The notes: generated by a model from the letters alone, not told the origin. A stretch of DNA of 64,000 nucleotides from a virus (IMGVR_UViG_3300036829_000172:62195-126194); one strand, 5' to 3'. Positions 15,347 through 31,411 are shown, numbered from the stretch's first letter. Numbers and translations: made by a program.

Positions 15347-16842
15347 TCCGATCGTGCGGGACACCGATAGCCGGTAAGCCGGGGGGACAAAACGTGCAGG
15401 CAGCGGCCAAGATTCATGCGATATCCACAACCGTTCCGCCGCTGTCTGTACGGTTAGCCGCTGCGCTTGCCGCCGCGGGCCTGATGATGGCAACCCCACT
15501 GACAAGCGGTGTCGCGGCCGCTGTCACCCCGCCCCAGGTGGATCCGGCAGCTGTTCCACCCGACACCCCACCCGGGCCCGACGAGCCGCTGCGAATGGAG
15601 CATACCTGTGCGGTCACCGGTGTACTTCCCGGCACCGACCTGGGCGCCCCCTCATCGTCGCAAGCCTTCATGGCTCTGCCCGACCTGTGGAAATCGGCGG
15701 GCCGCGGCGCAGGAGTGCCGGTGGCGATCATCGACACCGGGGTTTCACCCTCACCGCGGCTGCCGCACCTACGCGGAGCTGGCGACTACGTCGTCGCCGA
15801 CGGGGATGGGCTCTCCGATTGTGACAGCCACGGCACCATCATCGCGTCGATCATCGGCGGCGCACCGTCCGACGGTGACGGGTTCGCCGGCGTGGCACCT
15901 GGCGCCGAACTCATCTCGATCCGGCAAAGCTCGGAAGCGTTCGTGCCGGAGCATCCGCAGGCGGGTGACCTGCAGACCGACCGGCGGGCAGGAACCGTGT
16001 CGTCGCTGGCACGCGCCGTTGTGCACGCCGCCAACGCAGGCGCCCGCATCATCAACATGTCCGTCGTCGCCTGCGTCCCGACCCTCAAACCGGTCGACCA
16101 AACCACGCTGGGCGCCGCGCTGCGCTACGCCGCGGTCGACAAAGACGTGGTGATCGTCGCGGCCGCAGGCAACGCCGTCGGCGGGCAGGACTGCGCGCAA
16201 AACCCCGACGTGGACGCGACCAACGCTAAAGACCCGCGGAACTGGACGGGTGTCGTGACGATCTCCACACCCAGCTGGTTCTCCGACTACGTGATGTCGG
16301 TGGGCGCCACCGACGGCGGTGGGCAACCGGCAGCGGACGATCACGGCCGCGAGATCACACTGTTCGGGCCGTGGATCGGTGTCGGTGCGCCCGGTGTATC
16401 CGTGGAGGGGTTCAACGACCGTGGTGACCTGATCAATTCGGCGCTCGACGCGAACGCTGGGCAGCTGAAGCCGATGAATGGGACCAGTTTCTCAGCGGCG
16501 TACGTGTCGGGGCTGGCGGCGTTAATTCGCGCGAAATACCCCGACCTGAGTGCGGCGCAGGTCATCCACCGGATCGAGGTGACCGCGCACTCCCCGGCGC
16601 CGGTCGTCGACAACCGGATCGGGTACGGCACCGTCGACGGGCTGGCGGCCCTCAACGACGACGTCCCGGTGGGGGCGGCGGCACCCGCCGAGCACCTGTC
16701 CAGACCGCTGGCGATACCGCCGCCCCGGCCGCAGCCGGACCGGCGACCGATGCTGGTCGCGGTGATCGGGTCGGCTGTGCTGCTGGCTGGTATGGGCGGG
16801 CTGTTCGGAGCCATCAATCTCACAAGAAGGAGTAAGCGGTGA
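15343..16842 (+). CDS. mycP: type VII secretion-associated subtilisin-like protease mycosin
   Basis: Triad IIDTG / DCDSHGT / NGTSFS; ISIRQSS, INMS, AAAGN; N-terminal signal and C-terminal TM. Confidence 0.95.
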   Translation: MIRSCGTPIAGKPGGQNVQAAAKIHAISTTVPPLSVRLAAALAAAGLMMATPLTSGVAAAVTPPQVDPAAVPPDTPPGPDEPLRMEHTCAVTGVLPGTDLGAPSSSQAFMALPDLWKSAGRGAGVPVAIIDTGVSPSPRLPHLRGAGDYVVADGDGLSDCDSHGTIIASIIGGAPSDGDGFAGVAPGAELISIRQSSEAFVPEHPQAGDLQTDRRAGTVSSLARAVVHAANAGARIINMSVVACVPTLKPVDQTTLGAALRYAAVDKDVVIVAAAGNAVGGQDCAQNPDVDATNAKDPRNWTGVVTISTPSWFSDYVMSVGATDGGGQPAADDHGREITLFGPWIGVGAPGVSVEGFNDRGDLINSALDANAGQLKPMNGTSFSAAYVSGLAALIRAKYPDLSAAQVIHRIEVTAHSPAPVVDNRIGYGTVDGLAALNDDVPVGAAAPAEHLSRPLAIPPPRPQPDRRPMLVAVIGSAVLLAGMGGLFGAINLTRRSKR

Positions 16843-17132
16843 GTTTCTGGTCGGCGTACGCGTTTGACTTCTGGCACGGGTTCGTGAGTGCGGGCGAGGT
16901 GCTCGTGGCGTACTGCGTCACGCGGCGTCTCTGCCGGCCAAGTGCTCGTGTTCCGCGTGTACCGCGTCACGGGACGTCTCACGAGAGCAAAATGACGCAA
17001 GAACTGGTATGCGTGGTGTGCTACGCCGAACCGCATGACGCCTACGACTACTCGAAGATGAGGGACTTTCTAATGGTTGTCGACGGCAACAGGCTGTGTC
17101 GCAAGCATCGTGCGGGGAGGCTGCCAGCATGA
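16839..17132 (+). CDS. small hypothetical protein between mycP and eccE
   Basis: GTGA/ATGA overlaps on both sides. Confidence 0.5.
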   Translation: MSFWSAYAFDFWHGFVSAGEVLVAYCVTRRLCRPSARVPRVPRHGTSHESKMTQELVCVVCYAEPHDAYDYSKMRDFLMVVDGNRLCRKHRAGRLPA

Positions 17133-18688
17133 GCAAAGAGAAGCTGCCCCGGTGGCAGTTGTCGTTTCCCGCGCGGCACGTCGTCGTCGGCGAAATGGTC
17201 GCGGCGCCGGTCGTGCTCGGATTGGCGCGGCACGTGTGGTGGCTGGCTGTGATCGCGGCCGTACCGGTGTTCGTTGGCGTCGGCCTGCGCTACCGCGGTG
17301 ACACCGCCCTCGGATGGCTGGCTCGAGCCATGCGCCGCCGAAACCGCAGCGTCCTGATTCCAGACGCGTTGAGCGTGGAGCTGCCCGGCGTCGGTCCGAT
17401 CGGGATGCGCATCGACGGGCAATACGCGCTCACCGTCATCGCGTTGCACGGTCGGCCGTTCCCGGAGACGGTCCTGGTGCCCGAGGGTGCCGACACTCTG
17501 GACGTCGTCCCGCTGGAGACGATCGGTTCCCTTCTGCGCCAGTTCGGTGGCCTCGAGTTGGACAGCATCGACGTGGTGTCGGCCGGCAGCCGGGTAGCCG
17601 CTGACGGGCGGTACACCCCCCGCTACGACGAAGTGATCGGCGACCGGCCAGCCGTTGGTCAGCGGCGCACTTGGCTGATGTTGCGGCTGTGCCCGCAGGC
17701 CTGCCTGAAAGCGCTGGCATACCGGGGAGATGTGGGTGTGGCTGTCGCGGCCGCGACCGAACGCATCCGGCAGGCCGCGGTGCGGGAGGGATGCCGGGCC
17801 AGCACGTGCAGCGCCGAGCAGCTGGACGCGGTAACCGGGGCGCTGCTCGGTGGTCATGACGTTGAGCGGTTCGAGGAGCGGTGGTCGCACCTGCGGGCGG
17901 GCAACGACTACATCAGCAGCTACCTCATCGCGGGTGAAGACCTGACCAGCCGGTTGTTGGCGGACCTCTGGACGATCCGCTCAAGGATGACGGTGACGGT
18001 GCTGCGGCTAACCCGCGGGCCCGCTGGCGGTGTCGACGTAGGGGGCCTGGTGCGGCTGCACACCACGAACCCGTTGACTCATCCGCCGCTGGGCGCGCTG
18101 CACCCGCTGCCCGGAAAGCAGATCTGCGCGCTGTGTGCCTCGCTGCCCTTCGGAAACCGATCCCTAGAGATGGACCTGTCACGCAGACGGCTCGACGGTG
18201 CGCGCGGCCTGACCGTGCCGGTGGGCCCGTGCGGGCCGATGCTCGGCATGACGAGAGACGGTGTCGCGCTGCTGATGCCGTTCACCGACCCGCTGAAACA
18301 CTGCACCATCGCGATCCACGCGGACTTCGACGTACAGGCCGCCCTGCTGCTGCGGGCGACCGCCGCGGGCGCGACCGCTGTCGTACACACGGACCGGCCG
18401 CACGCCTGGGAGCCGATCTGCGACGAACGGATGATGCTGGCCGGGGGTGTTCAAAACGTGAACACACCGGACCTGGTAGTGGCCGACGGCGAAACAGCCG
18501 TCAAGCGGCTACTGGCGGGCAGCGGTGAACGTGGACACACACTGGTCGTGTGCGGTACGCCGCCGCCGGACTGCGACGTCGTGATCACACAGGTGATGGC
18601 CGACGAGCTCGCCGTAGAGGTCGGGCAGCGGCGAATCAGCCTGACGGTGCTGCGTCCAAGGAAGGAACGAGACGCGTTCCTCAGCTGA
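17129..18688 (+). CDS. eccE: type VII secretion protein EccE
   Basis: N-terminal TMs, IDVVSAGSR, GQRRTWL.LRL, ERWSHL, LADLW, GPMLG; ATG at 17129 used. Confidence 0.9.
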   Translation: MSKEKLPRWQLSFPARHVVVGEMVAAPVVLGLARHVWWLAVIAAVPVFVGVGLRYRGDTALGWLARAMRRRNRSVLIPDALSVELPGVGPIGMRIDGQYALTVIALHGRPFPETVLVPEGADTLDVVPLETIGSLLRQFGGLELDSIDVVSAGSRVAADGRYTPRYDEVIGDRPAVGQRRTWLMLRLCPQACLKALAYRGDVGVAVAAATERIRQAAVREGCRASTCSAEQLDAVTGALLGGHDVERFEERWSHLRAGNDYISSYLIAGEDLTSRLLADLWTIRSRMTVTVLRLTRGPAGGVDVGGLVRLHTTNPLTHPPLGALHPLPGKQICALCASLPFGNRSLEMDLSRRRLDGARGLTVPVGPCGPMLGMTRDGVALLMPFTDPLKHCTIAIHADFDVQAALLLRATAAGATAVVHTDRPHAWEPICDERMMLAGGVQNVNTPDLVVADGETAVKRLLAGSGERGHTLVVCGTPPPDCDVVITQVMADELAVEVGQRRISLTVLRPRKERDAFLS

Positions 18689-18794
18689 CCTGTAACACGA
18701 TTCGTCAACACGCCCTGTCTACGTATTGATTCGCATGTGTCGTCGTGGGAGAATAAGACAGTGCAAGCAAGCGGTGCGTCGAAAGGACACGATC

Positions 18795-19133
18795 ATGAAC
18801 GCCCCAGCTGTGGCAGTCGATGTGCAATGGGAGCAGATTCAGGAGCAGGCCCGCGAGGAGCAGTTCCTGCCTGAGCCGGATCTTGACCCGGTTGATGACG
18901 GCGTGGACGAAAATCTGGCCAACGCCCGCGCGGTCCTTCTAACGGAACTCGCCACCACCGTGCAGGCGCTGCAGCGCGCAGCCAAACACGTCAAGGCCCT
19001 CATGGACGTCGACGCCGGATTCATCAAGGGCTGCGACGGACGACACATCGGCGTCCACATCGACGAGGCGTTGCTTTTCAGCCGCGCCGCCTACGCAGTC
19101 GTGCACATGATCGCCGACCAGGCGCAGCCATGA
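18795..19133 (+). CDS. hypothetical helical protein
   Basis: GAAAGGA RBS; first gene after a non-coding gap. Confidence 0.65.
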   Translation: MNAPAVAVDVQWEQIQEQAREEQFLPEPDLDPVDDGVDENLANARAVLLTELATTVQALQRAAKHVKALMDVDAGFIKGCDGRHIGVHIDEALLFSRAAYAVVHMIADQAQP

Positions 19134-19255
19134 ACGCCCTGCACCTCGTCGAGATCCTGTTGGCAACCATCGTCGTCGTCGGGTTCGGGGCAGCTTTCCA
19201 CGTGGCCCAGCAGGCGTTGGAGCGGTGGGAACAACACCGCCACGCCGAAGACTGA
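19130..19255 (+). CDS. small membrane protein (41 aa)
   Basis: ATGA-coupled; single hydrophobic segment. Confidence 0.5.
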   Translation: MNALHLVEILLATIVVVGFGAAFHVAQQALERWEQHRHAED

Positions 19256-19260
19256 GACGG

Positions 19261-19812
19261 ATGACCGATATGGCTGGCAACGCTGCTCACGAACCGCCGA
19301 TGTCGCGGACTATGGCACTGATGGCCCACGCCATCCCCTACCTGCTGATGATCGCGGTGGCCAACAGGGTGGCGTATTTCCTCAAGCTGTCGCTCATCCC
19401 ATCCATATTGGATACCGGCGCCGCGTTAGTGCTCATGGTCGGCGTGATCGCGCTCTACCGGCATCTGCGTTTCGGCGGCTTGTGCCTGCGCTGCATGCGC
19501 AATACGCCGTTGGATCCCGGGCGGGAGGTCGCGCGTAACAAGGTCTTCCTCTGGGAGTTGCACTGGTCGACGGGACGGCTGTGGGTCGTGCTCGGGGTCT
19601 GCGTGGGCATCCTCCTGGTGGGTGAGCATGCGCATGGGTTGATGCACACACTGTCCAAGATCCCGCTGGACATCCAGTTCTTCTCACTGACGTGGGCCAT
19701 CTGGATTCACCATCGCCTGCGACCGTGGTGCCCATACTGCCGAGGCTGGGGTGAAGGTGGCGAAGAGGAGCGTGTGCCCGATCCAGACCCAGCCGAGAAG
19801 GGTGTGCGGTGA
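19261..19812 (+). CDS. hypothetical membrane protein with CxxC motifs
   Basis: Four hydrophobic segments; CLRC and WCPYC. Confidence 0.65.
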   Translation: MTDMAGNAAHEPPMSRTMALMAHAIPYLLMIAVANRVAYFLKLSLIPSILDTGAALVLMVGVIALYRHLRFGGLCLRCMRNTPLDPGREVARNKVFLWELHWSTGRLWVVLGVCVGILLVGEHAHGLMHTLSKIPLDIQFFSLTWAIWIHHRLRPWCPYCRGWGEGGEEERVPDPDPAEKGVR

Positions 19813-19930
19813 TGAGCATCGCCGACCGGGCGACGAGGCCCCGCAACCCCAAACCGCCGCTGAGCAACGAGGAGATCATGCTGGCGATGCGGCGACGGCG
19901 CGGCATGTGGGGACCGAAAGGGGCGTGGAA

Positions 19931-20275
19931 GTGACCGGACACTATGACGAGCACGCCTTCTTCGACGCGTGGCAGCGGGGTGTCGAGATCGCCGGGCACC
20001 GGTGGTTCGGCGACGGTACAGCCGCCGCAGCCGCCAACGCCACCAGGAAAGAACGACTGGAGCCGCGCTTCGATGACATTTCGGAGGCGATCGGCTGGCT
20101 GTCGTCTGGTGAGGCGACGTTCCTGGCGGCCATGTACAGCTTCTACAACGCCGACACCGGCGGCAAGATGCTGCGCCAACTGCGGGTCAACGGTCTCGCC
20201 GACGTAGCCGCAAAGTTGGATGAACCGCGAGTGCGTGTCATCGCGGCCTTGCTCGTCAGCTATGCGGGCTGGTGA
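19931..20275 (+). CDS. hypothetical protein
   Basis: GTGA-coupled chain; LSSGE..FLAAMYSFYN. Confidence 0.6.
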   Translation: MTGHYDEHAFFDAWQRGVEIAGHRWFGDGTAAAAANATRKERLEPRFDDISEAIGWLSSGEATFLAAMYSFYNADTGGKMLRQLRVNGLADVAAKLDEPRVRVIAALLVSYAGW

Positions 20276-20314
20276 ATCTGGCGCGCACCACAATCTTTCT
20301 CGTGGGGAGAAAGA

Positions 20315-20345
20315 AGGCGGCCCCGGTCTCTGGCCGGGGCCGCCT
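20315..20345. terminator. bidirectional terminator between convergent operons
   Basis: AGGCGGCCCCGG-7nt-CCGGGGCCGCCT, with a T-run on + and a short T-rich tract on -. Confidence 0.75.
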
Positions 20346-20416
20346 GTTTTAGAGGCCGTTCCAAGTGCGCCTGGCGCCTATGGACTAGGGGCTAATGACT
20401 CCCACGGCCCGGTCTC

Positions 20417-22066
20417 TTACTGAGTCGGGGACAGGCGAACCGTGTCGGTGAAGCCCATCTGGGAGATGGCCCGCAGGCCGTCGGCGACCGAGATCGTCTC
20501 CGGGTCGCCGAACTCGCAGCGCAGCTCCTCGAGCTTGCGGCTGACGTCGACCTGTTTCTCCGGGATGCCTTGCAGGTCGCGGACCTGGCGGCGCGCCCGG
20601 GCCAGCATCGCCCGCATGTCGAGGTCGTCTGCGGCCATGTCGTAGCAGGTGACGATGGTGTGCTCCAAGGCGACCACCTTGCCGAGGTCCAGTGGGCGGT
20701 CCTCCCCGCTGGGCACCTCGTCGCGCTCCTCGTCGTCCTGGTCGTCGTCGTCGGCGCGGTCCTGCTCGTCGCCGTGGACGTGCCCGCCGACATCGGGGCC
20801 GAGGTCGCCGACGGTCGGATCGCACTCGTCGTCGACACCCATCGCGTTCAACTGCTTAGGCATGGGCATGTAGCTGTCCTCCGGTCCGGTGTCGCTGTCG
20901 GATTTGATGGTCGAACCCACATCGAGGTTCGGTCGGTCGCCGGGAACGCTCCCGGTCTGCGCGCCCTTGCTGTAGGGCTCCTCGTGGGGATCCAGCGGGG
21001 AATCCGACGGTGTCCAGGTGTACGGGTTGCCGAAGCCGCCGCGGTTGTCGGTGACCGGGACCTTCGAGCCGTTGGACAGGACCGCGACGAGCATGGTGCC
21101 GCCGGCCGCGTTGGCGGCGGTTTCGATACGCAGCACGCTGACCGGCTTGGAATCTGTGGGGAGCTCGGCGCCGAACTTTCTGGCGGCGGACTTGATCTTG
21201 CGTTCGATAGCCGATAACTGGTCGGCGGTGTAGTCCTTGCGGTTCTTGGGCGTCGAGATGTGGCGCCACGCCGACTGCACCCTGGCGGCGCTGTTCAACG
21301 GATAGCGGGGTACACCGTTGCCGCTCTTGGCCGGTTTGTAGTCGGCGTCCTTGTAGCCGGGATCAGCGAAGTTGGAGACACCCCTGTTCGCCTTCGGCGC
21401 GGCGCGTTCCAGAGTAGCCAACGCGCGGCGCACCCGGTCGCGGTCCATGTTGCGCAGCTCGAGCATGTCGGTGTTCGACAGTTTGGCCAGCACATCGATG
21501 GCCTCCGCCGACGACAACATCGCAGCGGTGTTGGGGTTCATCCCGTAGTTCACCACCGACACGTCACCTTTCTCAAGGTTGACGTTCATGATCTTGCGGT
21601 GGGTGTAGTTGGTGTCCCAGTTCTGGTTGCGGACCCGGAACGCGAAGCTCATCTCGTCCATGTCGCCGCGGCGCATTTTCGGCATCAGCCGCTGCACATC
21701 AGGGTCGGTCTGATCGAGGTAGGCCAGGATCCGCAGCCCGTAGCGGTCGGTGCGCAGGTGCAGCGTGCCGGGATGACTGTCGTGAGCGGTGCGGGCCAGC
21801 GGAAGACCTTCATGGTTGAGCAGCAGCACAACATCGGGTTCATCACCCAACGTCTGGTCGAACGCCCGGAAATCGATCTCCTCCACCCACCCGCCCGCAT
21901 CGACACCGCCGTACACGTCATAAGGGGTGAACGTCGCCGCGTAGCCCTCAAGAATGACTTGCCCAGTTTTGGTGTCAGTGCGGTACTCGAGAGGGCGGGC
22001 CAGCTGGCGCCGCTCGAGGACATCCAGGATTTTCGCGCGGGCGCTGCGCTCTTCAAGAGTCGTCAT
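20417..22066 (-). CDS. HK97-family prohead protease with DUF6582-like domain and acidic C-terminal tail
   Basis: LEGYAATF, LLNHEG.PLART (His), GDMDEMSFAF (Ser), GDVSVVNYGMNP; then ADPGY...RYPLNSAARVQSAW..I. Confidence 0.9.
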   Translation of the reverse strand: MTTLEERSARAKILDVLERRQLARPLEYRTDTKTGQVILEGYAATFTPYDVYGGVDAGGWVEEIDFRAFDQTLGDEPDVVLLLNHEGLPLARTAHDSHPGTLHLRTDRYGLRILAYLDQTDPDVQRLMPKMRRGDMDEMSFAFRVRNQNWDTNYTHRKIMNVNLEKGDVSVVNYGMNPNTAAMLSSAEAIDVLAKLSNTDMLELRNMDRDRVRRALATLERAAPKANRGVSNFADPGYKDADYKPAKSGNGVPRYPLNSAARVQSAWRHISTPKNRKDYTADQLSAIERKIKSAARKFGAELPTDSKPVSVLRIETAANAAGGTMLVAVLSNGSKVPVTDNRGGFGNPYTWTPSDSPLDPHEEPYSKGAQTGSVPGDRPNLDVGSTIKSDSDTGPEDSYMPMPKQLNAMGVDDECDPTVGDLGPDVGGHVHGDEQDRADDDDQDDEERDEVPSGEDRPLDLGKVVALEHTIVTCYDMAADDLDMRAMLARARRQVRDLQGIPEKQVDVSRKLEELRCEFGDPETISVADGLRAISQMGFTDTVRLSPTQ

Positions 22067-22078
22067 CAGTAACCTCCG

Positions 22079-23572
22079 TCAACGCCCTAGCGTTTCACCA
22101 GAATTTCCGTGGCCGTTGTAAGGCGCGCCGCCGACACCGGCAAGTTGGCGGTCTGCCCCGTCGATGTCTTCGCCCGGTTGGGGCTCCGACGGGTCGAAGC
22201 TGTAGTAGGAGCCGTCCGCCTGCCACAGGCCCGGCACCGGTTCGGAGCCGGTGGCGGCCAGCCACATACCGCGTTTGGGGTCGTAGTAGGCGAACGCGCG
22301 GTCCTGGTTTTCCCCGCCACCGATCGGAGGCATCGGCAAACTACCCGGCGGCTTAGCCGGCGGCGGCGGGTTGCCGATCGCGACCGGAGAACCGGCCGGC
22401 ACCAGGGTGGCCGGGTGCAGCAGCACGTCGCCGCCCTCGAGTGGGTCCATCTCTTCGCGGGCCCGCAGCTCGTTGGCGGTGATCCAGCCGGCGCCCTGCG
22501 ACGAGCCGACCGCCTTCTGGTAGGCGGCCCACCGGCCGATCACATCGCCGCGCAGCAGCGCTTCGAAGTCGAACCGCACGAACTGACCGCGCGGCAGACA
22601 GCTGGAGATGACCGACTCCATACACGCCGTCCAGGCCCGGAACGTGTAGGTGATCGCGCCCAGCGTGATCTGCTCGACGCCGGTGCCCCACGCGGTGGTT
22701 TCCTTCGTGTCACCGATCAGGATCGGCGGGACACCGTACATCAGGCAGATCTCGGAGCGCTGGAACTGCCGTGTTTCCAGGAACTGGGCCTCGTCGGGTT
22801 TGATGACGATCGTTTCCCACTTGAACCCGTTCGTCAGGACAGCCGGCAGTCGGCGCCCGCCGTGTGAGGCGATCCAGTTGCGTTGCTGCCGGGTGACCGC
22901 CTTCTCGTCGAGGTCCTTGTCGGTGAACAGGATGCCCGACGGGTTGGCGGCTTCCTTGAAGTAGCGGTACCCGTATTCCTCGGACGCCAGGCTCATGCCG
23001 ATCGCGACCTGGGCCTGGTTGACCGGCGACAGCCCCCACGGTTCGCCCGGCATGGTGAACCGGCGGATGTGCACGATGTCGGAGTTGTTCTGCTCCTCGC
23101 CCATGATCCGGTAGATCGGGTCGAACCACAGCAGCAGGTCGGGGCGCCGTTCCAGGAACACCATGTCGGGATGCAGCGGCAGCAGCGACGTCGGGTAGCC
23201 CAGCTTGTCGCGCGAGGTGATCAGGTGATAGCTGTTGCCGCGCAGCGCCATCGAGGCGATGACCATCCATTTCCAGTTGAACAGGTCGAAACCCGGGAAC
23301 GGTTGACGCAGAATCGCCGGCTGCGGGTTGACCTCCTTGGGCACCCCTTTCGCGTCGCGGCGGTACGCCTTCCACGGCAGCGACGCGATCGTGTCCGCCA
23401 GCACTCGGACGCACGCCAGCACCGTCATGCAGGCCATCGCCCGGTGCACACCGACGAAGTCGTCGATCACCCCGACCGCCGGCGGCGGCACGAACGAGGA
23501 CGTCATCAGGGTCCGCTGCTCGGCGCCGCCGGTCTCGGCGACGCGGGTACGGACCCGCGCGAGGATGCTCAC
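22079..23572 (-). CDS. phage portal protein (HK97 family)
   Basis: ACVRVLADTIASLPW, LRGNSY, L.PLHPD, GLSPV, ANPSGIL, QFLETRQFQ..EIC.MYGVPP.LIG, GWITANE.R.RE.M.P; GTG at 23572 taken as start. Confidence 0.95.
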   Translation of the reverse strand: MSILARVRTRVAETGGAEQRTLMTSSFVPPPAVGVIDDFVGVHRAMACMTVLACVRVLADTIASLPWKAYRRDAKGVPKEVNPQPAILRQPFPGFDLFNWKWMVIASMALRGNSYHLITSRDKLGYPTSLLPLHPDMVFLERRPDLLLWFDPIYRIMGEEQNNSDIVHIRRFTMPGEPWGLSPVNQAQVAIGMSLASEEYGYRYFKEAANPSGILFTDKDLDEKAVTRQQRNWIASHGGRRLPAVLTNGFKWETIVIKPDEAQFLETRQFQRSEICLMYGVPPILIGDTKETTAWGTGVEQITLGAITYTFRAWTACMESVISSCLPRGQFVRFDFEALLRGDVIGRWAAYQKAVGSSQGAGWITANELRAREEMDPLEGGDVLLHPATLVPAGSPVAIGNPPPPAKPPGSLPMPPIGGGENQDRAFAYYDPKRGMWLAATGSEPVPGLWQADGSYYSFDPSEPQPGEDIDGADRQLAGVGGAPYNGHGNSGETLGR

Positions 23573-23586
23573 AGGCGGAGTGTCTC

Positions 23587-24030
23587 CTAGCTGTCGAACC
23601 GGCGGCTGGTCAACACACCGATGGCGATCAGGCACAGACCGGCAATGAACAGGCCAAGCCACACGTGGATCACGAATCCGCCGCCGGCCAGACACAGCAT
23701 CCCGGCGAGCTCGATCCCGGTCGAGGTCAGTTCCCGCCGATCCCACTCACGTTTCTTCTTGGCGGTGACCGGCGGGGTCTGCGGTGGGGGCGGCGCCGGT
23801 TCCGGCTGCTTTTTCGGCTCCGGGTCGGGCGGCGGGCGCCGGTCGTCCTCGGACTCGGGGTGGTCAGCCCACGGCGGCTGGTCCAGCATCCCGGCGGCGC
23901 GGGCGGCGCGCAGCTGGTCCTGCATCCGCGAGTCGGAGTAGATGCGGCCGCCGCCGCCGACCACGACGGGCGGGCTACCGTCCGGGGCCGGGTTGATCGG
24001 GTTGGGGGTTCCAGCGGTCGTATTCGTCAT
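23587..24030 (-). CDS. Pro-rich protein with two C-terminal TM helices (terminase-portal intergenic membrane protein)
   Basis: GIELAGMLCLAGGGFVIHVWLGLFIAGLCLIAIGV; position typical of actinophage head modules. Confidence 0.7.
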   Translation of the reverse strand: MTNTTAGTPNPINPAPDGSPPVVVGGGGRIYSDSRMQDQLRAARAAGMLDQPPWADHPESEDDRRPPPDPEPKKQPEPAPPPPQTPPVTAKKKREWDRRELTSTGIELAGMLCLAGGGFVIHVWLGLFIAGLCLIAIGVLTSRRFDS

Positions 24031-25642
24031 CGGCTTCCTTTCGCCACTGATCGATGATGTCGTCGTCGGGCCAGTCCCACACCCGGGAGTCGCCTTCAAC
24101 CTCGGGCGGGTTGTTCAGCAGCCACACCGCGCCGCAGCAGCCGATCAGCGGGGACGCGTCGACCGGTGATTTGCGCCGGTCGAAGAACCAGGAGTCGCCG
24201 ATCTGCCGGCCGATCGTGGAGGCCGCGGCCCGGTCCAGCGCTTTGGCCGGCGGGTGTTTGATGGTGCCGCCGGTGATGCCGTCGTAGAAGTCGCCGGCGG
24301 CGGCCGCGAGCTGCGCGACAGGCTTGCCCCACTCGGCCACCTCGATACCCTTGTCGTCGCCGCCGTCGCGGTCCTCGGTGAGCTCCTCGATCAGACCGGA
24401 CGCGGGAGCCCCGGTCCGCTGAATACAGACAGCTTTGAAGCGCTTGCCCTCGCCGACGCGGGGTTTCAGCCAAGCGCGCAGCCAGTCGGTGCCCTTGCCG
24501 GCCTTGATGACCTCGGTGTGGATGTCGCCGTCGGCGCGCAGCGCCGCGGCCGCGATGTAGGTGCGGGTGCGGTGATAGTTGGTGTCGACGCAGAGGTAAA
24601 CGTCGGCGCCCGGCGCGCGGGCCGACTTGCTGTCCTTGGTGTCGGCCCACGCCTGGGCGGGGATGATGCCCGGCGCCAGCGCATCCACCCACTGGCACAG
24701 GTACTCGGTGCGGAATCCGGGCAGGTCGTCGGCTTCCATGTTTTCGTAGTGGGCGTGCAGATCCTCCAGGCAGAACTCGGCCAGCTGCCCCAGCGCCGGG
24801 TTAGCCATGTGCCAGTACTTGTCGTCACGCGGGTCGACGTCATCAGGCACCGACCATTCGAAAAACCCGGTCTGGCTGTTGTCGGTGTCCTTCGTGATGA
24901 TCCTGCGGATCGCCGCATCACGCAGACCCTTCAGGACGATCGACTTCGCCTCCCCGGCGTTGGAGGTGACCAGCACCTGCGCGCACGGCCGCACATTCGT
25001 CGTCGGCGTGACGGCGCGCCACGCGTCAGGCTTGGTGTGCTCACGCATCTCGTCGAGCCACGCGAAATCCACCGACAGCGACCGGCCGCCGCTGCTGTTC
25101 GCGGTCACCGCCCGCCACGACCGCCGGTACGTCAGTATCGCTTTGTGCTTGCCGTTGGTGGTGATGTGCCGCATCAGCTCCGGCGCCAACAAGTCGTCGT
25201 CGCGGATGTCGTCAACAACGTGCTGCAGCGTCCCCTCGGCGTAGTCAAGGTTCTGCGCGGCGACCACCGCCAGCTTGGCCGCCGGCCAATCCGGGTCGGG
25301 CCGGCCGTGCTTGTCCATGAACAGCCGCCACAAACCGAGGCCTTCGCCCCACTTCGTTTTTCCATTTTGGCGGGCCATTAGCACAACTAAGTAGCGGAAT
25401 CGGAACCCGGTGCCGTTCGGGCGTTTCTCCAACGCCCGGTAGTACAGCCACCGCTGAAACGGGATCAGGTGCCAGCCCAGCAGATGCTCCAGGAAAAAGC
25501 AGCACTGCGGACCCCACGTCGCTTCCGGTTTAATCCCGTACTCGGCGTCAGGGTCGGCGTGCTGCGGCAGCGGCGGCGTGTGATACCGCGGCAGCAGCGA
25601 ACCGACACGAGGATCAGGAGCAGGGGGAGCGGCAACCGTCAT
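23975..25642 (-). CDS. phage terminase large subunit
   Basis: Walker A MARQNGKT, GGRSLS, Walker B AWLDEMRE, TSNAG, FEWS, ANPALG, FRTEYLCQW, RNaseH-like VDT and VDA. Confidence 0.95.
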   Translation of the reverse strand: MTVAAPPAPDPRVGSLLPRYHTPPLPQHADPDAEYGIKPEATWGPQCCFFLEHLLGWHLIPFQRWLYYRALEKRPNGTGFRFRYLVVLMARQNGKTKWGEGLGLWRLFMDKHGRPDPDWPAAKLAVVAAQNLDYAEGTLQHVVDDIRDDDLLAPELMRHITTNGKHKAILTYRRSWRAVTANSSGGRSLSVDFAWLDEMREHTKPDAWRAVTPTTNVRPCAQVLVTSNAGEAKSIVLKGLRDAAIRRIITKDTDNSQTGFFEWSVPDDVDPRDDKYWHMANPALGQLAEFCLEDLHAHYENMEADDLPGFRTEYLCQWVDALAPGIIPAQAWADTKDSKSARAPGADVYLCVDTNYHRTRTYIAAAALRADGDIHTEVIKAGKGTDWLRAWLKPRVGEGKRFKAVCIQRTGAPASGLIEELTEDRDGGDDKGIEVAEWGKPVAQLAAAAGDFYDGITGGTIKHPPAKALDRAAASTIGRQIGDSWFFDRRKSPVDASPLIGCCGAVWLLNNPPEVEGDSRVWDWPDDDIIDQWRKEADDEYDRWNPQPDQPGPGR

Positions 25643-25869
25643 CCGCAACACGCATCTTCAGGGGCGATCTCGATCTCGAGGCGCAGCGACTCGGTCACCT
25701 CGCAGTGCCCGGCACAGTCCGGGTCGGCGCACTGCGCGAGGATCCGCTGCAGCACGAAGCCTGTCGTCAGCCCGTACGCGATCAGCTCACCCGCCACCCG
25801 CACCTCGATCTCCTGCGGCGCGATCCACGTCTGCCCCCGTAAATGGTCGGGCAGTGACAGGACCGTCAT
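25639..25869 (-). CDS. small hypothetical protein
   Basis: Stop overlaps terminase ATG; CADPDC..HC. Confidence 0.5.
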   Translation of the reverse strand: MTVLSLPDHLRGQTWIAPQEIEVRVAGELIAYGLTTGFVLQRILAQCADPDCAGHCEVTESLRLEIEIAPEDACCG

Positions 25870-25885
25870 CCGGCCGGCAGGCTGA

Positions 25886-26164
25886 TTACCGATCGGGATC
25901 ACTGCCCGTCGTGTCGGAAGGAGTCGTCGACATCCACGACGGCGCGACGACCGCAGGCTCATCAATCTGCCCGCCGCCGGTCTTTGGTTCGCCCCAGTGC
26001 AGCACCTCGCCGGCACCCGCGGCCTGCCTGTCTTCGTCCGCCCGCGTCAACGCCTCATAGAACGCATCAGCGAACAGCCGGCGCAGCGGCTCAGTGATCA
26101 GCAGCCACACCGCTTCGATGGCATCCGACAGCAGCGGGAGCACGCCTTGATTGTCTGGCCGCAT
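25886..26164 (-). CDS. hypothetical protein
   Basis: 92-aa ORF co-oriented in the operon. Confidence 0.5.
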   Translation of the reverse strand: MRPDNQGVLPLLSDAIEAVWLLITEPLRRLFADAFYEALTRADEDRQAAGAGEVLHWGEPKTGGGQIDEPAVVAPSWMSTTPSDTTGSDPDR

Positions 26165-26167
26165 TAA

Positions 26168-26267
26168 CCATGGCAGCTGTCAAGCAACTTCGCGCGGCGT
26201 GTCGGAAAGGGAAACCGGCAATCTTTTCCATGGCCGCTGTCAAGCAGGTTGGGCGGCGTGTCGCAAA
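26168..26267. repeat. imperfect direct repeat, 60-bp period, core CCATGGCnGCTGTCAAGCA
   Basis: Copies at 26168-26186 and 26228-26246, extended by GCGGCGTGTCG; contains TTGACA on the - strand. Confidence 0.75.
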
Positions 26268-26401
26268 AGAAACTGCCCCGCACCGATTCCAGCGGTATCG
26301 CGGGGCAGTCCTATCCCAGTCCCAACAGTGGAAGGAACTCCACCAGTTTACCATTACGCGAGTGGGCCGGGCCGCCTGGGATCACGTGCCCCTGTGGGCC
26401 A

Positions 26402-26974
26402 TCACCGTACGAGTTCCGTGGCGGCGACCACGGAAAGCTCAGACCGGCTCGGGTCATACCGGGCGATATACCAGCGTTGCCCGCCGAACTGGTAGGAAAC
26501 CCGGAACACATTGTCGCCATCCATGTCGTCGCCGAATCGCTGCTGCGGCGCAGCCAGCGCGATCTGCACAGTCAAACCACCGACCGTCGGCTGATTCCAG
26601 ATCGGCACGCCCACCACACCCTGCGCCCGCACCGCCACAGTGCCGCCGCGGCGCAGCTCCTCGGTCACGTACACGTCGGCAGAACCTGTGCCCAGAGCCC
26701 CGGGCAGCCCTTCGGGGTAGAACAAGTCACGCCACTCCAAGGTGAACTGGTGACCCTCGACGTACGACGGAGGATCTCCTGCGGGCACATACCGATGGAT
26801 GATCCGGAACTCGTACTCCTTGACTGAGCCGCCGTCCTCGAGAGCGGCGCGCCAATGCCAACGCGCGAACCTCTGCTCAGGGTTGGTGACCGGAGCGGGA
26901 CCTGTGATCGCCGCATCTGCCGTGATCGGCGCACTTCGCCGTGGATGGCGAGCCCGTACTGTGTGGTCAGTCAT
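26402..26974 (-). CDS. hypothetical protein
   Basis: High-GC3 codon use over most of its length; start uncertain. Confidence 0.6.
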   Translation of the reverse strand: MTDHTVRARHPRRSAPITADAAITGPAPVTNPEQRFARWHWRAALEDGGSVKEYEFRIIHRYVPAGDPPSYVEGHQFTLEWRDLFYPEGLPGALGTGSADVYVTEELRRGGTVAVRAQGVVGVPIWNQPTVGGLTVQIALAAPQQRFGDDMDGDNVFRVSYQFGGQRWYIARYDPSRSELSVVAATELVR

Positions 26975-27123
26975 CACGGCGGCGTGTTCTCCTGGCGGCT
27001 GGCGGTCGCCGCTATCGTAGCGTTGCGCGCGAAGACCTGCTGAATGAGACACGCCACGCCGCCCGACCTGCTTCGGCGACATCGCCTTCCCCCTCCGGGT
27101 GCACCACATCGCGGAGCCCGCTG

Positions 27124-27197
27124 TACGCCCGGCCGGATTCGAACCGGCGTCTCCGACTTAAAAGGACGGAGCTAAAACCAGACTCAGCTACGGGCGC
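27124..27197 (-). tRNA. tRNA-Lys(TTT)
   Basis: Hand-folded cloverleaf; anticodon loop CT TTT AA; GGTTCGAATCC. Confidence 0.9.
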
Positions 27198-27242
27198 ATG
27201 CCAGAGACACGCGTCCGTTTTCGACGTCCAATGATGCTCACG

Positions 27243-27319
27243 TGCCCCCGGCAGGATTCGAACCCGCATCGTCCGTTACGGCTTTACACCGGGGTAGAAA
27301 CCCGGGCCGATACGAGGGC
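27243..27319 (-). ncRNA. atypical tRNA-like RNA, anticodon TCT (Arg), no canonical D-arm
   Basis: GCCCTCG TA TCGGC CCGGG TTTCTAC CCCGG TGTAAAGCCGTAACGGACGAT GCGGG TTCGAAT CCTGC CGGGGGC A. Confidence 0.8.
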
Positions 27320-27320
27320 G

Positions 27321-27393
27321 CGTCCCTGACAGGAATCGAACCTGCAGTCTCCGCCTCCGGAGGGCGGCGCTCTGTCCGTTGAGCCACAGAGAC
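27321..27393 (-). tRNA. tRNA-Arg(CCG)
   Basis: Cloverleaf; CCGCC CT CCG GA GGCGG. Confidence 0.92.
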
Positions 27394-27397
27394 CTCG

Positions 27398-27470
27398 CTG
27401 GAGTGGCTGGATTCGAACCAACACCGCCGGGAACCAAAATCCCGTGGGCTACCCATTACCCCACACTCCA
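27398..27470 (-). tRNA. tRNA-Gln(TTG)
   Basis: Cloverleaf; CGGGA TT TTG GT TCCCG. Confidence 0.92.
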
Positions 27471-27471
27471 G

Positions 27472-27544
27472 TACCGCCGACAGGATTCGAACCTGCAATC
27501 CGCGCCTTAGGACGGCGCTGCCGTTTCCATTGGGCCACGGCGGC
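27472..27544 (-). tRNA. tRNA-Arg(CCT)
   Basis: Cloverleaf; GCGCC GT CCT AA GGCGC. Confidence 0.9.
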
Positions 27545-27547
27545 CTG

Positions 27548-27629
27548 TACGGAGCGCAGGATTCGAACCTGCCTGGCCCAGCTACGGCATTGTGATCCAC
27601 ACGTTATAAGCGTGCGCCGATACCTCCGC
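27548..27629 (-). ncRNA. atypical tRNA-like RNA, anticodon TAT (Ile), no canonical D-arm
   Basis: GCGGAGG TA TCGGC GCACG CTTATAA CGTGT GGATCACAATGCCGTAGCTGGGCCAG GCAGG TTCGAAT CCTGC GCTCCGT A. Confidence 0.8.
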
Positions 27630-27630
27630 G

Positions 27631-27704
27631 TACCCCTAGCAGGACTCGAACCTGCGGCCTCCCGGTCCGTAGCCGGGCGCTCTGCTCCGCTGAGCTATAG
27701 AGGC
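27631..27704 (-). tRNA. tRNA-Arg(ACG)
   Basis: Cloverleaf; CCCGG CT ACG GA CCGGG. Confidence 0.93.
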
Positions 27705-27708
27705 GTCG

Positions 27709-27785
27709 TAGCGCGGGCCGGATTCGAACCGAGCGATCTTCAGATTATGAGCCTGACGGGATGGACCGAACTTCCCTACCGCGCA
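27709..27785 (-). tRNA. tRNA-Met(CAT), initiator-like
   Basis: T1:T72 mismatch; TCAGG CT CAT AA TCTGA; one extra base in the T-stem. Confidence 0.85.
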
Positions 27786-27806
27786 CCGTCTATTGAGTTG
27801 TTGCCG

Positions 27807-27878
27807 CTGGGATGCCAGGACTCGAACCTAGATCGCCGGAGCCAGAATCCGGAGTCTTGCCGATTGGACCACACCCCA
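27807..27878 (-). tRNA. tRNA-Gln(CTG)
   Basis: Cloverleaf; CCGGA TT CTG GC TCCGG. Confidence 0.92.
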
Positions 27879-27885
27879 CTGGGGG

Positions 27886-27956
27886 CTCCCCTACCTGGAT
27901 TCGAACCAGGAGTCACGGATTAACAGTCCGTAGGTTTGCCATTAACCGACAGGGGA
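27886..27956 (-). tRNA. tRNA-Asn(GTT)
   Basis: Cloverleaf; ACGGA CT GTT AA TCCGT. Confidence 0.92.
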
Positions 27957-28016
27957 TCGACACGGCTACTGTTGCCGCGGATTCCTTCGCTGTCGGATGG
28001 CTTTCAACACGGTCTG

Positions 28017-28046
28017 ATGGTAACCCGGGACCGGCCCGCGGCTCAA
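28017..28046 (-). promoter_or_regulatory. candidate sigma-A promoter for the Asn-to-Lys tRNA sub-cluster
   Basis: TTGAGC-18 nt-TACCAT on the - strand, 60 nt upstream of tRNA-Asn. Confidence 0.4.
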
Positions 28047-28397
28047 TCACTTTTTGCGGCCGCTCTTCTTCTCGGCGCGTAATTCGCGGCGGTAGGAGGC
28101 GAAAGCGGCGCGGCATCGGTCGCATTTGCAGCACCAGCTGGTGTATCCGGTCAATGTGCCGTGCTGTTCAGCAGGCATGAGACCGGCCTCGCGGCGCCTG
28201 ATCTTCTTCTGCTTCGCGGTGTGCTGATAGCGCCGCCTGGCCTCGAGGGTGGGCGCATTGCGTGGCCGGCATTCGGCGCTGCAGTATAGGCGGTTGCGTC
28301 CGCGCAGGGACCGAATGTTGAAATCGCCGCCGCAGGTGACGCAGGTCTTCCATACCCCAGGGGCATCGGAGCGGTACTCCATAGGCGCCGTTCTCAT
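28047..28397 (-). CDS. basic Zn-finger protein
   Basis: CVTCG...YCSAEC and HGTLTGY..CKCDRCR motifs typical of actinophage small proteins. Confidence 0.7.
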   Translation of the reverse strand: MRTAPMEYRSDAPGVWKTCVTCGGDFNIRSLRGRNRLYCSAECRPRNAPTLEARRRYQHTAKQKKIRRREAGLMPAEQHGTLTGYTSWCCKCDRCRAAFASYRRELRAEKKSGRKK

Positions 28398-28398
28398 G

Positions 28399-28851
28399 TC
28401 AGCCCGATCCTAGTTCCTCGGCCACGACCTCTGGCGGTGCGAGCGCCAGCAGCCGGTCGGGCAGGACGGAGGCGCGGCGGACAGCTTCAGGGGTGCGTCG
28501 GATGTCGAGCACCGGGCCGACCCGGGACTGTTCAGCGGGACTGAGCCGGCGGCGCAGATGAAACGCCCGCCCGGTCCATTCCGCCCACTCGCCCAGCTCG
28601 GGCGCGCCGAGACCGTCGAGCTCTTTACGTGCGCGTCGTCCGCACAGCGTTGGCCCGTGGAAGGCCCGGGCCGGGGCGACCGAGACGTGCCAGACCGGCC
28701 CGCCGAGATCCATCTCGAGTCATTCGTAGCCGCTGTTGACGGTCAGGACGATGGTGAAGCCGGGTTCGGCGCGGGCGAAGCGGGGGTTCATCGTTTCGAT
28801 CGCGAGGCGGCAGTGGTGGCGCAGCGCTATCTCGGCGGCACGAGCGGTCAT
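28399..28851 (-). pseudogene. hypothetical gene with one in-frame TGA (28720-28722): pseudogene, read-through, or two short ORFs
   Basis: ATG 28851 is ATGA-coupled to the upstream ORF; ...TVNSGYE*LEMDLGGPVWHVSV... continues in frame to 28399. Confidence 0.5.
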
Positions 28852-28985
28852 CTCTCGACCTTATCGCTCTCATGCTGACGCGCTCCCTGGCAGCAGATGT
28901 CCCCAAGCCGCAGTGGGCATGTGATGATCGCGAACTCATCCCCACGTCTGAGTGGGCAGAGCCCAGAGTGGATATCGCCGTTCAT
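28848..28985 (-). CDS. small Cys-containing ORF (45 aa)
   Basis: ATGA overlaps at both ends. Confidence 0.4.
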   Translation of the reverse strand: MNGDIHSGLCPLRRGDEFAIITCPLRLGDICCQGARQHESDKVER

Positions 28986-29320
28986 GGCTCGGGGGGTGGG
29001 AAGTTAAGGCCAGGCATGGTATTTTCCGGTCTCAATTTCATTCCGGTCCATGTGCCGTCTTGGTGGTCATCAAATTCGGCTGTGTACCCGTAGCGCATCG
29101 CGATCAGGTCGGCCTGCGCACGGTTGGCTGTGTAGATGGTTCGGCTCAAGGCGAACGATCCGCGGCTGCGCTGGGTTTGCATCGCGGCGAGGGTCGTGTC
29201 GAGTTGTCCCATCTGCCAGCCGGCGACGTAGGCGTCGTCGTCGTAGGGTCCGTCGTTTGAGGTGACGGGCAGGAACGGCATTTCCAGGCTGTAGCCTTCG
29301 TCTTCAATGTCGGGCATCAA
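28982..29320 (-). CDS. hypothetical protein
   Basis: 112-aa ORF in the coupled chain. Confidence 0.65.
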   Translation of the reverse strand: MMPDIEDEGYSLEMPFLPVTSNDGPYDDDAYVAGWQMGQLDTTLAAMQTQRSRGSFALSRTIYTANRAQADLIAMRYGYTAEFDDHQDGTWTGMKLRPENTMPGLNFPPPEP

Positions 29321-29541
29321 CGTCCTTGACTCGAGCGCACGTCACTTCCCACGCATCGGGCAGGGCAGCGCTGGGTGACGGGGTGAGCATAGAACCGTGC
29401 GCCGGAGGGCGCGTCGTCACACGTCATCAGGGATTGGTGGGGGCCAGTGAGGTGGACCCATTCACGGTCGGGATCATGGCGGATACGCCAGCCGCAGTGT
29501 GCACAGTCATCCTCGGTGTCGGCACGTCCGCAACAGGCCAT
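29317..29541 (-). CDS. small Cys/His-rich protein
   Basis: CAHCG...WVH...C; starts immediately after tRNA-Glu. Confidence 0.55.
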   Translation of the reverse strand: MACCGRADTEDDCAHCGWRIRHDPDREWVHLTGPHQSLMTCDDAPSGARFYAHPVTQRCPARCVGSDVRSSQGR

Positions 29542-29542
29542 G

Positions 29543-29613
29543 CGCTCGGTACGAGAATCGAACTCGTGTTTTCGGTCTGAGAAACCGGTGGGCTACCACT
29601 ACCCCAATCGAGC
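29543..29613 (-). tRNA. tRNA-Glu(CTC)
   Basis: Cloverleaf with mismatches; loop TT CTC AG. Confidence 0.82.
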
Positions 29614-29709
29614 AGGGTGGGCGGCTTTCGCGGGTGTCTAATCCGCCAGCCTGTCGGTGCCGCCCTACTGGGTCGCGTCATGATGAGGGTGTTGCGACCA
29701 AAAGCCCCG

Positions 29710-29781
29710 CAGTTGTGCCGGGGCTCGAACCCGAACGACCGGGGTGAAAACCCGGCAGGCTGACCGTTACCTCACACAACC
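29710..29781 (-). tRNA. tRNA-Glu(TTC)
   Basis: Cloverleaf; CCGGG TT TTC AC CCCGG. Confidence 0.9.
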
Positions 29782-29792
29782 CTTGCATCCGG

Positions 29793-29866
29793 TTCCTGCT
29801 CCTGGAGTCGAACCAGGGTCCTTCGCATTATCAGTGCGCTGCGCCAACCAACTGCGCCAAGCAGGA
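29793..29866 (-). tRNA. tRNA-Ile(GAT)
   Basis: Cloverleaf; loop CT GAT AA. Confidence 0.9.
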
Positions 29867-29870
29867 CTAG

Positions 29871-29942
29871 CGACCCAGACGGGAATCGAACCCGTGACGG
29901 ACGCCGCGACAAGGCGTTGCCTAACCATTCGGCTTCTGAGCC
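29871..29942 (-). tRNA. tRNA-Asp(GTC)
   Basis: Cloverleaf; ACGCC TT GTC GC GGCGT. Confidence 0.9.
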
Positions 29943-30010
29943 AGGTGGACCCTGCCCGAGAGGGGTAGATGTTCAAGAAATCAAGAAATGAACACCCCGG
30001 GCGGGGGCCG

Positions 30011-30084
30011 AGCGGCTAACGGGCTTCGAACCCGTGACCTCCACCTTGGCAAGGTGGCGCTCTACCATCCTGAGCTACAACCGC
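30011..30084 (-). tRNA. tRNA-Gly(GCC)
   Basis: Cloverleaf; CCACC TT GCC AA GGTGG. Confidence 0.93.
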
Positions 30085-30122
30085 AGCGCTTCGCTGATAA
30101 CGGTAATGCTATCAACAACTCG

Positions 30123-30197
30123 AGCCGGTGACAGGAATCGGACCCGCGTTTTCCTGTTTACAAGACAGGCGCTCTAACCAACGTGAGCTACACCGGC
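30123..30197 (-). tRNA. tRNA-Thr(TGT)
   Basis: Cloverleaf; CCTGT CT TGT AA ACAGG; T-loop TCCGATT. Confidence 0.88.
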
Positions 30198-30201
30198 GGT
30201 G

Positions 30202-30274
30202 TGCGCCCGGCAGGATTTGAACCTGCGGCCCTCCGCTTAAGAGGCGGTGGCTCTACCAGCTGAGCTACGGACGC
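30202..30274 (-). tRNA. tRNA-Lys(CTT)
   Basis: Cloverleaf; loop CT CTT AA. Confidence 0.92.
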
Positions 30275-30370
30275 GTGGGATCGGGGCGGCATGCTGGCTT
30301 TCGCCGCCCCGTCTCGGTTCGCGTTCGTAGCATCATGGTGATCACCATAACGTGCGGGCCGGTTCGTCGG

Positions 30371-30739
30371 CTACTGTTTTCCGCCGACCGCCAGCGAACG
30401 GGTAAGCAGCGTGTGGGCGCCGGCGTCCATCAGCAGGCCGGGCGTCACCTCGCAGCCGTGCTCGCAGGGCATCGATTCGACCGCGCCCCACAAGCGGCAG
30501 ATCAGTGGCCTGTCTTCATAGACGCTGCAGCGGCCGTCGACGAGCGCCGGGCAGGGGTTGGGTGTGCCGTCGATGATGGCTTGGAATGCGTGCTCGACGG
30601 GTGGGATGGTGACGCCGCGGGCGGCGATGCGTTGGCGTTCCTCATCGGACATGTCGATCGGGCCGCAGTATTCGGCGCACAGCCCGCGGCAGGCGACGGT
30701 TGGGACGGCCCGGTAGATCCGTTCGAGACTGTCTGTCAC
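30371..30739 (-). CDS. YkgJ-family cysteine cluster (putative Fe-S/Zn) protein
   Basis: CRGLC..YCG and CPALVDGRCSVYEDRPLICRLW. Confidence 0.8.
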   Translation of the reverse strand: MTDSLERIYRAVPTVACRGLCAEYCGPIDMSDEERQRIAARGVTIPPVEHAFQAIIDGTPNPCPALVDGRCSVYEDRPLICRLWGAVESMPCEHGCEVTPGLLMDAGAHTLLTRSLAVGGKQ

Positions 30740-30740
30740 G

Positions 30741-30812
30741 TGCCCCGTCGTGGTTTCGAACCACGGGCCTCCAGCATGTCGGGCTGGCGCTCTACCCCTG
30801 AGCTAACAGGAC
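30741..30812 (-). tRNA. tRNA-Val(GAC)
   Basis: Cloverleaf; CCAGC CC GAC AT GCTGG (C33). Confidence 0.88.
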
Positions 30813-31168: not shown

Positions 31169-31169
31169 G

Positions 31170-31408: not shown

Positions 31409-31411
31409 TGG

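Follow-up and report, generated by a model that had tools for sequence, protein, structure and literature searches.

A terminase-portal-protease block from a soil metagenome is probably one half of a complete phage head-tail operon that is split by a plasmid-type conjugation system

We examined a 64,000-nt stretch of DNA, hereafter the window, which comprises bases 62195-126194 of the 195,582-bp IMG/VR virus record IMGVR_UViG_3300036829_000172, assembled from a short-read soil metagenome. Positions given as "window" count from the first letter of this stretch, and those given as "record" span the whole record. Three long minus-strand open reading frames (ORFs) with high third-position GC lie at window 20417-25651 and encode a large terminase, a portal and a prohead protease. 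This phage block ends at a hairpin, on the other side of which lies a plasmid-type locus for ESX (type VII) secretion; the capsid gene of the phage is found elsewhere on the record. The features of the block, and the capsid gene, are the following:

Window 25639-26016: small ORF upstream of the terminase gene
Window 23975-25651, minus strand: large terminase TerL, 558 aa (phrog_9, E 2.4e-60)
Window 22079-23746, minus strand: portal, 555 aa (PF04860, E 1.4e-73, above the curated cut-off; phrog_12, E 1.1e-82)
Window 20417-22066, minus strand: S78 prohead (capsid maturation) protease, 549 aa (PF04586, E 1.5e-21)
Window 20315-20345, both strands: bidirectional terminator-like hairpin with a 12-bp stem, 11 of its pairs GC (dG -28.7 kcal/mol)
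Record 23473-24933, minus strand: HK97 major capsid gene (PF05065, 68.5 bits, match region 23551-24381)

TerL carries a Walker A-like motif (RQNGKT), a Walker B motif (FAWLDE) and the motif TSN, and aligns over nearly its full length, with no stops, to its closest IMG/VR relatives at 63-72% identity; a comparison of TerL with Pfam and PDB sequences gave no match. The portal is 75-79% identical to its closest relatives. The PF04586 match of the protease scores 77.7 bits against a cut-off of 21, and the protein is built of an S78 domain (aa 26-186), a DUF6582 domain (254-303), an acidic and variable linker (~340-458) and a conserved helical C-terminus (461-536). Residues H85 and S140 are invariant in an alignment of 21 homologues. 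An AlphaFold model based on the same alignment is ordered only in the protease core and in short helical parts, with residues 340-458 disordered, while a fold of the single sequence was unusable (mean pLDDT 38.7).

The hairpin lies 72 nt beyond the protease stop and 40 nt beyond the end (20275) of the last plus-strand ORF on the ESX side, and thus between two convergent transcription units, the protease gene and the ESX-side operon; as described below, it marks the right edge of an inserted conjugation module. A previous reading of the window from its sequence alone (the sequence-only reading) had described intact TerL, portal and protease genes that run into a terminator facing the ESX-side operon, and the ORFs, the family matches and the 12-bp hairpin all bear this out. 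Of the limits that it gave to the module, 20417-25869, the start is correct and the end is not: TerL stops at 25651, and 25869 falls within the small ORF at 25639-26016.

A search with PF05065 over the whole 195,582-bp record returned exactly one match, outside the window. Within the window this search found no capsid gene, and there is no paralogue there of the record's capsid, adaptor or tail-tube proteins, in agreement with the sequence-only reading, which had recognized no capsid or tail gene in it. When the search for an HK97 capsid that this reading had proposed is extended to the full record, it leads to the single capsid gene 57.7 kb away and, with it, to connector, tail and lysis genes. 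The capsid gene probably starts at the ATG at record 24933, with an AAGGA ribosome site, and lies on the same strand as the protease gene, 57,677 nt past the protease stop (record 82611). Its product matches HK97 gp5 chains in sequence and is 50% identical over its full length to the major capsid protein of Mycobacterium phage Bipper (Bippervirus, Cluster Y; KU728633).

The capsid gene is followed, on the same strand, by the genes for head-tail adaptor, neck protein, major tail protein (tail tube) and chaperone. A tape measure gene (2,344 aa) and five genes for minor tail proteins come next, and beyond the record junction the series continues with an HNH endonuclease, LysA and a LysB-like endolysin. 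The ends of the record share an exact overlap of 126 nt (record 1-126 and 195434-195559) that lies inside a glycine-rich minor tail gene, and the frame of this gene continues through the junction. The record, called linear by IMG/VR, is thus effectively circular or permuted, and probably represents a closed circle or a permuted genome that was broken at the repeat. The set of virion, packaging and lysis genes on the record is complete as judged from these genes. TerL, portal, capsid, adaptor and tail tube are each present in a single copy; since the head and tail genes tested are single-copy, they point to one phage and not two, and the idea of a second phage on the record was rejected.

The distance between protease and capsid is exceptional among the relatives of this phage. 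Among the IMG/VR relatives, 64 have both genes on one locus; there the median distance between the two is ~136 nt and the largest is 7.6 kb. In the 78 prophage relatives, no conjugation gene lies within 10 kb, and the capsid gene comes immediately after that of the protease wherever a capsid was found. The nearest sequenced phages to the DNA from TerL to the protease are Bipper, Typha and Cracklewink, with Bipper and its kin at ~67% over the TerL-portal-protease DNA. Bipper has the same late gene order as the phage described here (terminase, portal, protease, capsid, connectors, tail), and in both a terminator-like hairpin follows the protease gene, that of Bipper lying between protease and capsid. 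However, the genome of Bipper measures 77.8 kb and its capsid gene begins 182 nt after the protease, as compared to 195.6 kb and 57.7 kb here; Bipper has no conjugation or ESX genes, and its protease is shorter (341 aa versus 549 aa).

IMG/VR relatives match both halves of the operon at similar identity. Those that carry cargo genes between protease and capsid, for example L036, L030, L023 and L025, have the same head lineage, with TerL 51-53%, portal 66-71% and capsid 66-75% identical to the proteins of this record. On these comparisons, the capsid and the TerL-portal-protease block share one Bipper-like lineage. The architecture of the 549-aa protease, including its helical C-terminal domain, also recurs in relatives with an adjacent capsid gene, which argues that this protease is an ordinary partner of such a capsid. 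We also considered that its length might hide a protease-capsid fusion, and rejected this possibility: past the S78 domain there is only DUF6582, the disordered acidic linker and ~80 helical residues.

Further genes of the phage are found on the other side of the block. A second S78-type protease paralogue of 198 aa (window 50808-51404, minus strand; phrog_7053, E 1.1e-20) is 35% identical to the main protease domain, and stands isolated, at a long distance from any capsid gene. Upstream of TerL, the phage arm also carries an RNase E-like gene (window 37822-38307, minus strand), whose counterpart with the same annotation lies just upstream of the Bipper terminase, and a galactosyl transferase gene (window 38310-39065, minus strand).

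Between the two halves of the late operon lies a conjugation block of ~56.6 kb, which begins at about record 25.9 kb and reaches the hairpin at 82.5 kb. Its type IV-like part, outside the window at record 26265-35138, encodes a coupling protein, TcpC and a VirB4-like ATPase of 1,073 aa (PF02534, PF12696, PF12846, PF12642). The other features of the block are listed below; EccB, EccCa, EccCb, PE, PPE, the Esx pair, EspG, EccD, mycosin and EccE are all Pfam matches above cut-off.

Record 40999-46800: TrwC relaxase (MOBF), 1,933 aa (PF08751, E 5.1e-80)
Window 22-1670, plus strand: cell-wall hydrolase pair before the ESX locus (NlpC/P60, and a faint lysozyme-like match below the Pfam cut-off)
Window 2308-18688, plus strand: complete plasmid-type ESX (type VII secretion) locus, by Pfam matches
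Window 2308-3834, plus strand: EccB
Window 3831-4976, plus strand: EccCa (FtsK-type EccC)
Window 4973-7870, plus strand: EccCb (FtsK-type EccC)
Window 7956-8264, plus strand: PE
Window 8276-9487, plus strand: PPE
Window 9538-10178, plus strand: Esx pair (WXG100)
Window 10353-11336, plus strand: EspG
Window 11665-12879, plus strand: MinD/ParA-like protein of the ESX locus
Within window 12432-14396, plus strand: EccD (EccD/YukD)
Window 15343-16842, plus strand: mycosin (MycP; S8)
Window 17096-18688, plus strand: EccE
Window 18726-19133, 19225-19812 and 19751-20275, plus strand: three small ORFs at the end of the ESX-side operon, with high third-position GC

This gene set and its order are those of the pRAW-type plasmids of mycobacteria, namely pRAW, pFLAC0070_1 (NZ_CP023152) and a Mycobacterium riyadhense plasmid (NZ_OY970457), which carry the same ESX-P and type IV-like genes. 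Transfer of pRAW, following the work of Ummels and colleagues in 2014, reportedly depends on both the type IV-like and the type VII secretion systems. In pFLAC0070_1 the genes for the SLT protein, the NlpC/P60 protein and EccB come in the same order as here and the ESX locus is collinear, but it ends in EccA, unlike the present locus; no EccA was found in the latter, and the three small ORFs, for which we found no Pfam or PHROG match, stand in its place. EccB is 58-68% identical to the EccB proteins of the closest plasmids, among 104 plasmids with a match, almost all of them mycobacterial. The sequence-only reading had seen a conjugative-type ESX locus beside the head genes, and the full ESX-P set, the relaxase, the type IV-like parts and the collinearity with pFLAC0070_1 support that description. 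By its gene content the insert is a pRAW-type conjugation system, with type IV-like parts, a TrwC relaxase, wall hydrolases and a full ESX-P locus.

The pRAW-type plasmids differ from this record in that they have no relative of its capsid, whereas its own module is embedded in the late operon of a phage; a search of PLSDB with the capsid found no mycobacterial plasmid with a relative of it. At the DNA level, no close relative exists in the phage or plasmid collections, and the DNA of the conjugation module gave no match in the plasmid collection. Relatives of EccB in the phage collection were limited to two records of Mycobacterium phage Adler (KC960489 and KF981876, at ~14.08-15.57 kb), where a protein annotated as hypothetical is 32% identical over 97% of the query.

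Five of the relatives, the largest (87-114 kb), were searched for EccB and TrwC and have neither. Among the relatives are complete or nearly complete genomes of 113.9 kb (L036, with terminal repeats) and 113.8 kb. The absence of EccB and TrwC from the five largest relatives indicates that the conjugation module is a derived gain.

The position of this gain is not new as a site for additional genes. About ten of the closer relatives hold 1.4-7.6 kb between protease and capsid, and one (L026) holds more than 10 kb; in the cargo relatives compared above, the same site holds 1.4-7.6 kb, in islands 8-40 times smaller than the present one. Among the genes that relatives carry there are those for glycosyltransferases of the TET-associated type, for a methyltransferase and for a type III polyketide synthase. 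The last of these, with chalcone/stilbene synthase domains, lies at 11638-12720 (minus strand) of the relative L025, within its protease-capsid island. In mycobacteriophages, glycosyltransferases adjoining capsid genes are taken to glycosylate virions (PMC11256854). A phage glycosyltransferase (phrog_12406, E 5.8e-61) has been retained as lineage cargo on the present record as well, at record ~25235-25861 and divergent from the capsid gene; it was the one real lead of a tblastx search upstream of the capsid gene, which otherwise returned mostly GC-rich noise.

Taken together, these results make it quite probable that the terminase-portal-protease block is one half of a split but complete head-tail operon, belonging to a phage that has acquired a conjugation system of plasmid type at a site already used for cargo. 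With the same good confidence, we take the source to be one large temperate-type siphovirus of soil mycobacteria, whose late operon is cut at the protease/capsid spacer by ~56.6 kb of plasmid DNA. One option offered by the sequence-only reading was a rearranged phage-plasmid with its structural genes in another place. Their location on the same record agrees with this option, but the rearrangement is not an ordinary one, as it consists of a whole conjugation module placed at a single intergenic site.

The features around the insert suggest how such an arrangement might be accommodated. Bipper-type relatives have a canonical GC hairpin followed by a T-run between protease and capsid, so that the boundary between the two units appears to be old, at least in the Bipper branch. 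On the other side of the insert, upstream of the capsid gene, we found a sigma-70-like match, TTGAGC-18-AATAAT, at record 25147-25118, which overlaps a GCGTGTC box. The box and a leader hairpin of the GCCCT-GAAAA-AGGG type align with those of the closest relatives, with changes on both sides of the stem, and these relatives also have a -10-like hexamer downstream of the box. The divergent capsid/glycosyltransferase spacer as a whole (record 24933-25235) contains the GCGTGTC box, the -10-like AATAAT and two small hairpins before the ribosome site, the conserved leader hairpin being the second.

We propose that the TerL-portal-protease unit ends at the hairpin at window 20315-20345, which would block both late transcripts from running antisense into the ESX operon and ESX transcripts from entering the head genes, and that the capsid-tail unit would restart from its own promoter-like site and conserved leader directly upstream of the capsid gene. 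The protease/capsid spacer would then have been an operon boundary and a cargo dock of this lineage before the conjugation module arrived, and a very large insert may have been tolerated there for that reason. An insulated dock of this kind, with a terminator on one side and a promoter on the other, could have let a whole plasmid transfer apparatus enter without breaking head assembly.

The join between phage and plasmid genes is present in a separate assembly. One 26.3-kb Logan contig from the likely source run, with an even depth of 14.2, covers window 10000-28000 with 0 differences, and crosses the hairpin. Three runs of another soil study hold near-identical pieces of 150-460 nt from both the ESX side and the phage side, at a depth of 2-4. 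Variants listed from other soil runs are all synonymous, in the protease (5/5), mycosin (10/10), the ParA-like protein (4/4) and EccE (1/1). Uncovered stretches in runs X2, X3 and X6, and many short joints, were not used as evidence. At window 27264-27352, four of four runs have very deep contigs (summed depth up to 385x) from which 86-87 nt are missing, with short replacement letters instead; this anomaly in depth probably comes from tRNA-like sequences of other organisms, the region being a tRNA cluster.

Relatives of both gene sets point in the same direction. A protease relative that is 90% identical (P0002) and an EccE relative that is 87% identical (P0123) both come from a 55,516-bp Logan contig; none of the capsid relatives listed comes from a contig of this length. 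More diverged relatives of the protease (P0006, 57%), EccE (P0126, 61%) and the capsid (P0240, 84%) all come from a 165,338-bp ENA contig. Since equal sizes in the same source are very unlikely to arise by chance, at least two further assemblies, one of them well diverged, seem to carry the same combination of phage and ESX genes. Scans for close siblings with single proteins were negative: the protease had no hit among viral, metagenome or genome contigs, and neither the coupling protein nor EccE had one among viral contigs. A DNA pattern back-translated from the C-terminus of the protease recovered the window itself but nothing in metagenome contigs. All of these are weak negatives, because records near the window may have been left out of the searches. 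As far as sequence comparison can tell, both gene sets look maintained by selection.

Several observations weigh against the reading of a phage operon split at an old cargo dock. No contig from an independent sample bridges either junction, and the contig support for the join concerns the protease-side junction only. The co-occurrence in the two siblings was deduced from equal contig sizes in the same source and not from their DNA. The dN/dS values against relatives (0.19-0.53) come from long branches that are nearly saturated at synonymous sites, and are silent on the time since insertion. In the nearest clade, hairpins after the protease gene are not stronger than the GC-rich background, and the promoter assignment upstream of the capsid gene is tentative because its spacing between box and hexamer is unlike that of the relatives. 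The edges of the insert have no flanking direct or inverted repeat, only chance 12-mers, so that the route of insertion is unmarked. Finally, the 195.6-kb genome would need a larger capsid than those of the complete relatives of ~114 kb, which are free of EccB and TrwC.

With regard to the way of life of this element, no match to the integrase families PF00589 and PF07508 was found on the record, and one ParB_N protein is encoded at record 144984-147176. This combination fits plasmid-like residence but is no proof of it. It is possible, and we advance it only tentatively, that this is a working dual-mode element, which would form a tailed virion and also conjugate through its ESX and type IV-like systems as a plasmid-prophage, with the spacer serving as an insulated dock and the capsid enlarged to hold ~195 kb.

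Alternatively, the hybrid may be real while its phage half makes no infectious particles, as the insert would exceed the capacity of the capsid. The element would then be either a conjugative plasmid with stranded young virion genes, or one that packages sub-genomic headfuls. The size difference between the 195.6-kb record and its relatives supports this explanation, since capsid volume is said to allow changes of only a few percent in the size of phage-plasmids (PMC12282955), and the lack of an integrase together with the ParB_N protein would fit maintenance as a plasmid. Nevertheless, all virion genes are intact and single-copy, the protease variants in other soils are all synonymous, and a sibling at 57-84% protein identity seems to keep capsid, protease and EccE together, which speaks for long-term retention. 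In addition, the phage part without the insert measures ~139 kb, already above the relatives, so that capsid size may differ in this branch. We therefore consider the stranded phage unlikely.

An assembly chimera, in which a phage and an ESX-P plasmid from the same soil were wrongly joined, is a concern with any record from a short-read soil metagenome, all the more as bridging contigs from independent samples and close DNA relatives in the collections are lacking. It would, however, require two false joins, both of them in the same phage intergenic spacer. The separate Logan assembly crosses the protease junction, the record closes on itself through the glycine-rich tail gene, the base composition is uniform (0.62-0.73 GC, in a sequence of 65% GC), and relatives of the protease and EccE lie on equal-sized contigs in two other sources. 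A chimera is thus very improbable.

Satellites such as PICI, cf-PICI and P4 lack tails or capsids and depend on a helper, and their partial set of virion genes is what the window alone suggests. The proposal of the sequence-only reading that the block is a capsid-less packaging and maturation kit, satellite-like or plasmid-borne, which would use helper capsids or aid conjugative transfer, drew on the lack of a capsid, connector or tail gene within the 64 kb, and has practically nothing left in its favour now that the same record proves to encode a single-copy capsid of the same lineage with connectors and a full tail and lysis set, which refutes it, and that the helical C-terminal domain of the protease is kept in relatives with an adjacent capsid gene.

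The split operon, with its conjugation module, also has parallels among the phage-plasmids. P1, N15 and others combine a full set of virion genes with plasmid-type genes, as does this record, on which no integrase was found. According to a review from 2025, a phage-plasmid that is conjugative as well had not been found (PMC12282955). A preprint applies the term conjugative phage-plasmid to the E. coli cointegrate p1002-1, described as a phage-plasmid fused to a conjugative plasmid (bioRxiv 10.1101/2025.03.14.643293). Unlike p1002-1, the present element has a mycobacterial type VII and type IV secretion module within the head operon, in an arrangement that is seemingly common to diverged siblings.

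Gene transfer by phages and gene transfer by conjugative plasmids are treated as distinct routes. In the element described here, a complete conjugation apparatus of mycobacterial type, with type VII secretion, appears to lie inside the head operon of a complete phage genome, at a protease/capsid spacer that in this lineage serves as a cargo site holding from 1 kb to 57 kb. For annotation, the case shows that terminase, portal and protease genes which lack a neighbouring capsid gene do not by themselves indicate a satellite or a remnant. If both routes work, infection and mating would be coupled in soil mycobacteria, and virions would move ESX loci, which bears on the spread of ESX systems among mycobacteria.

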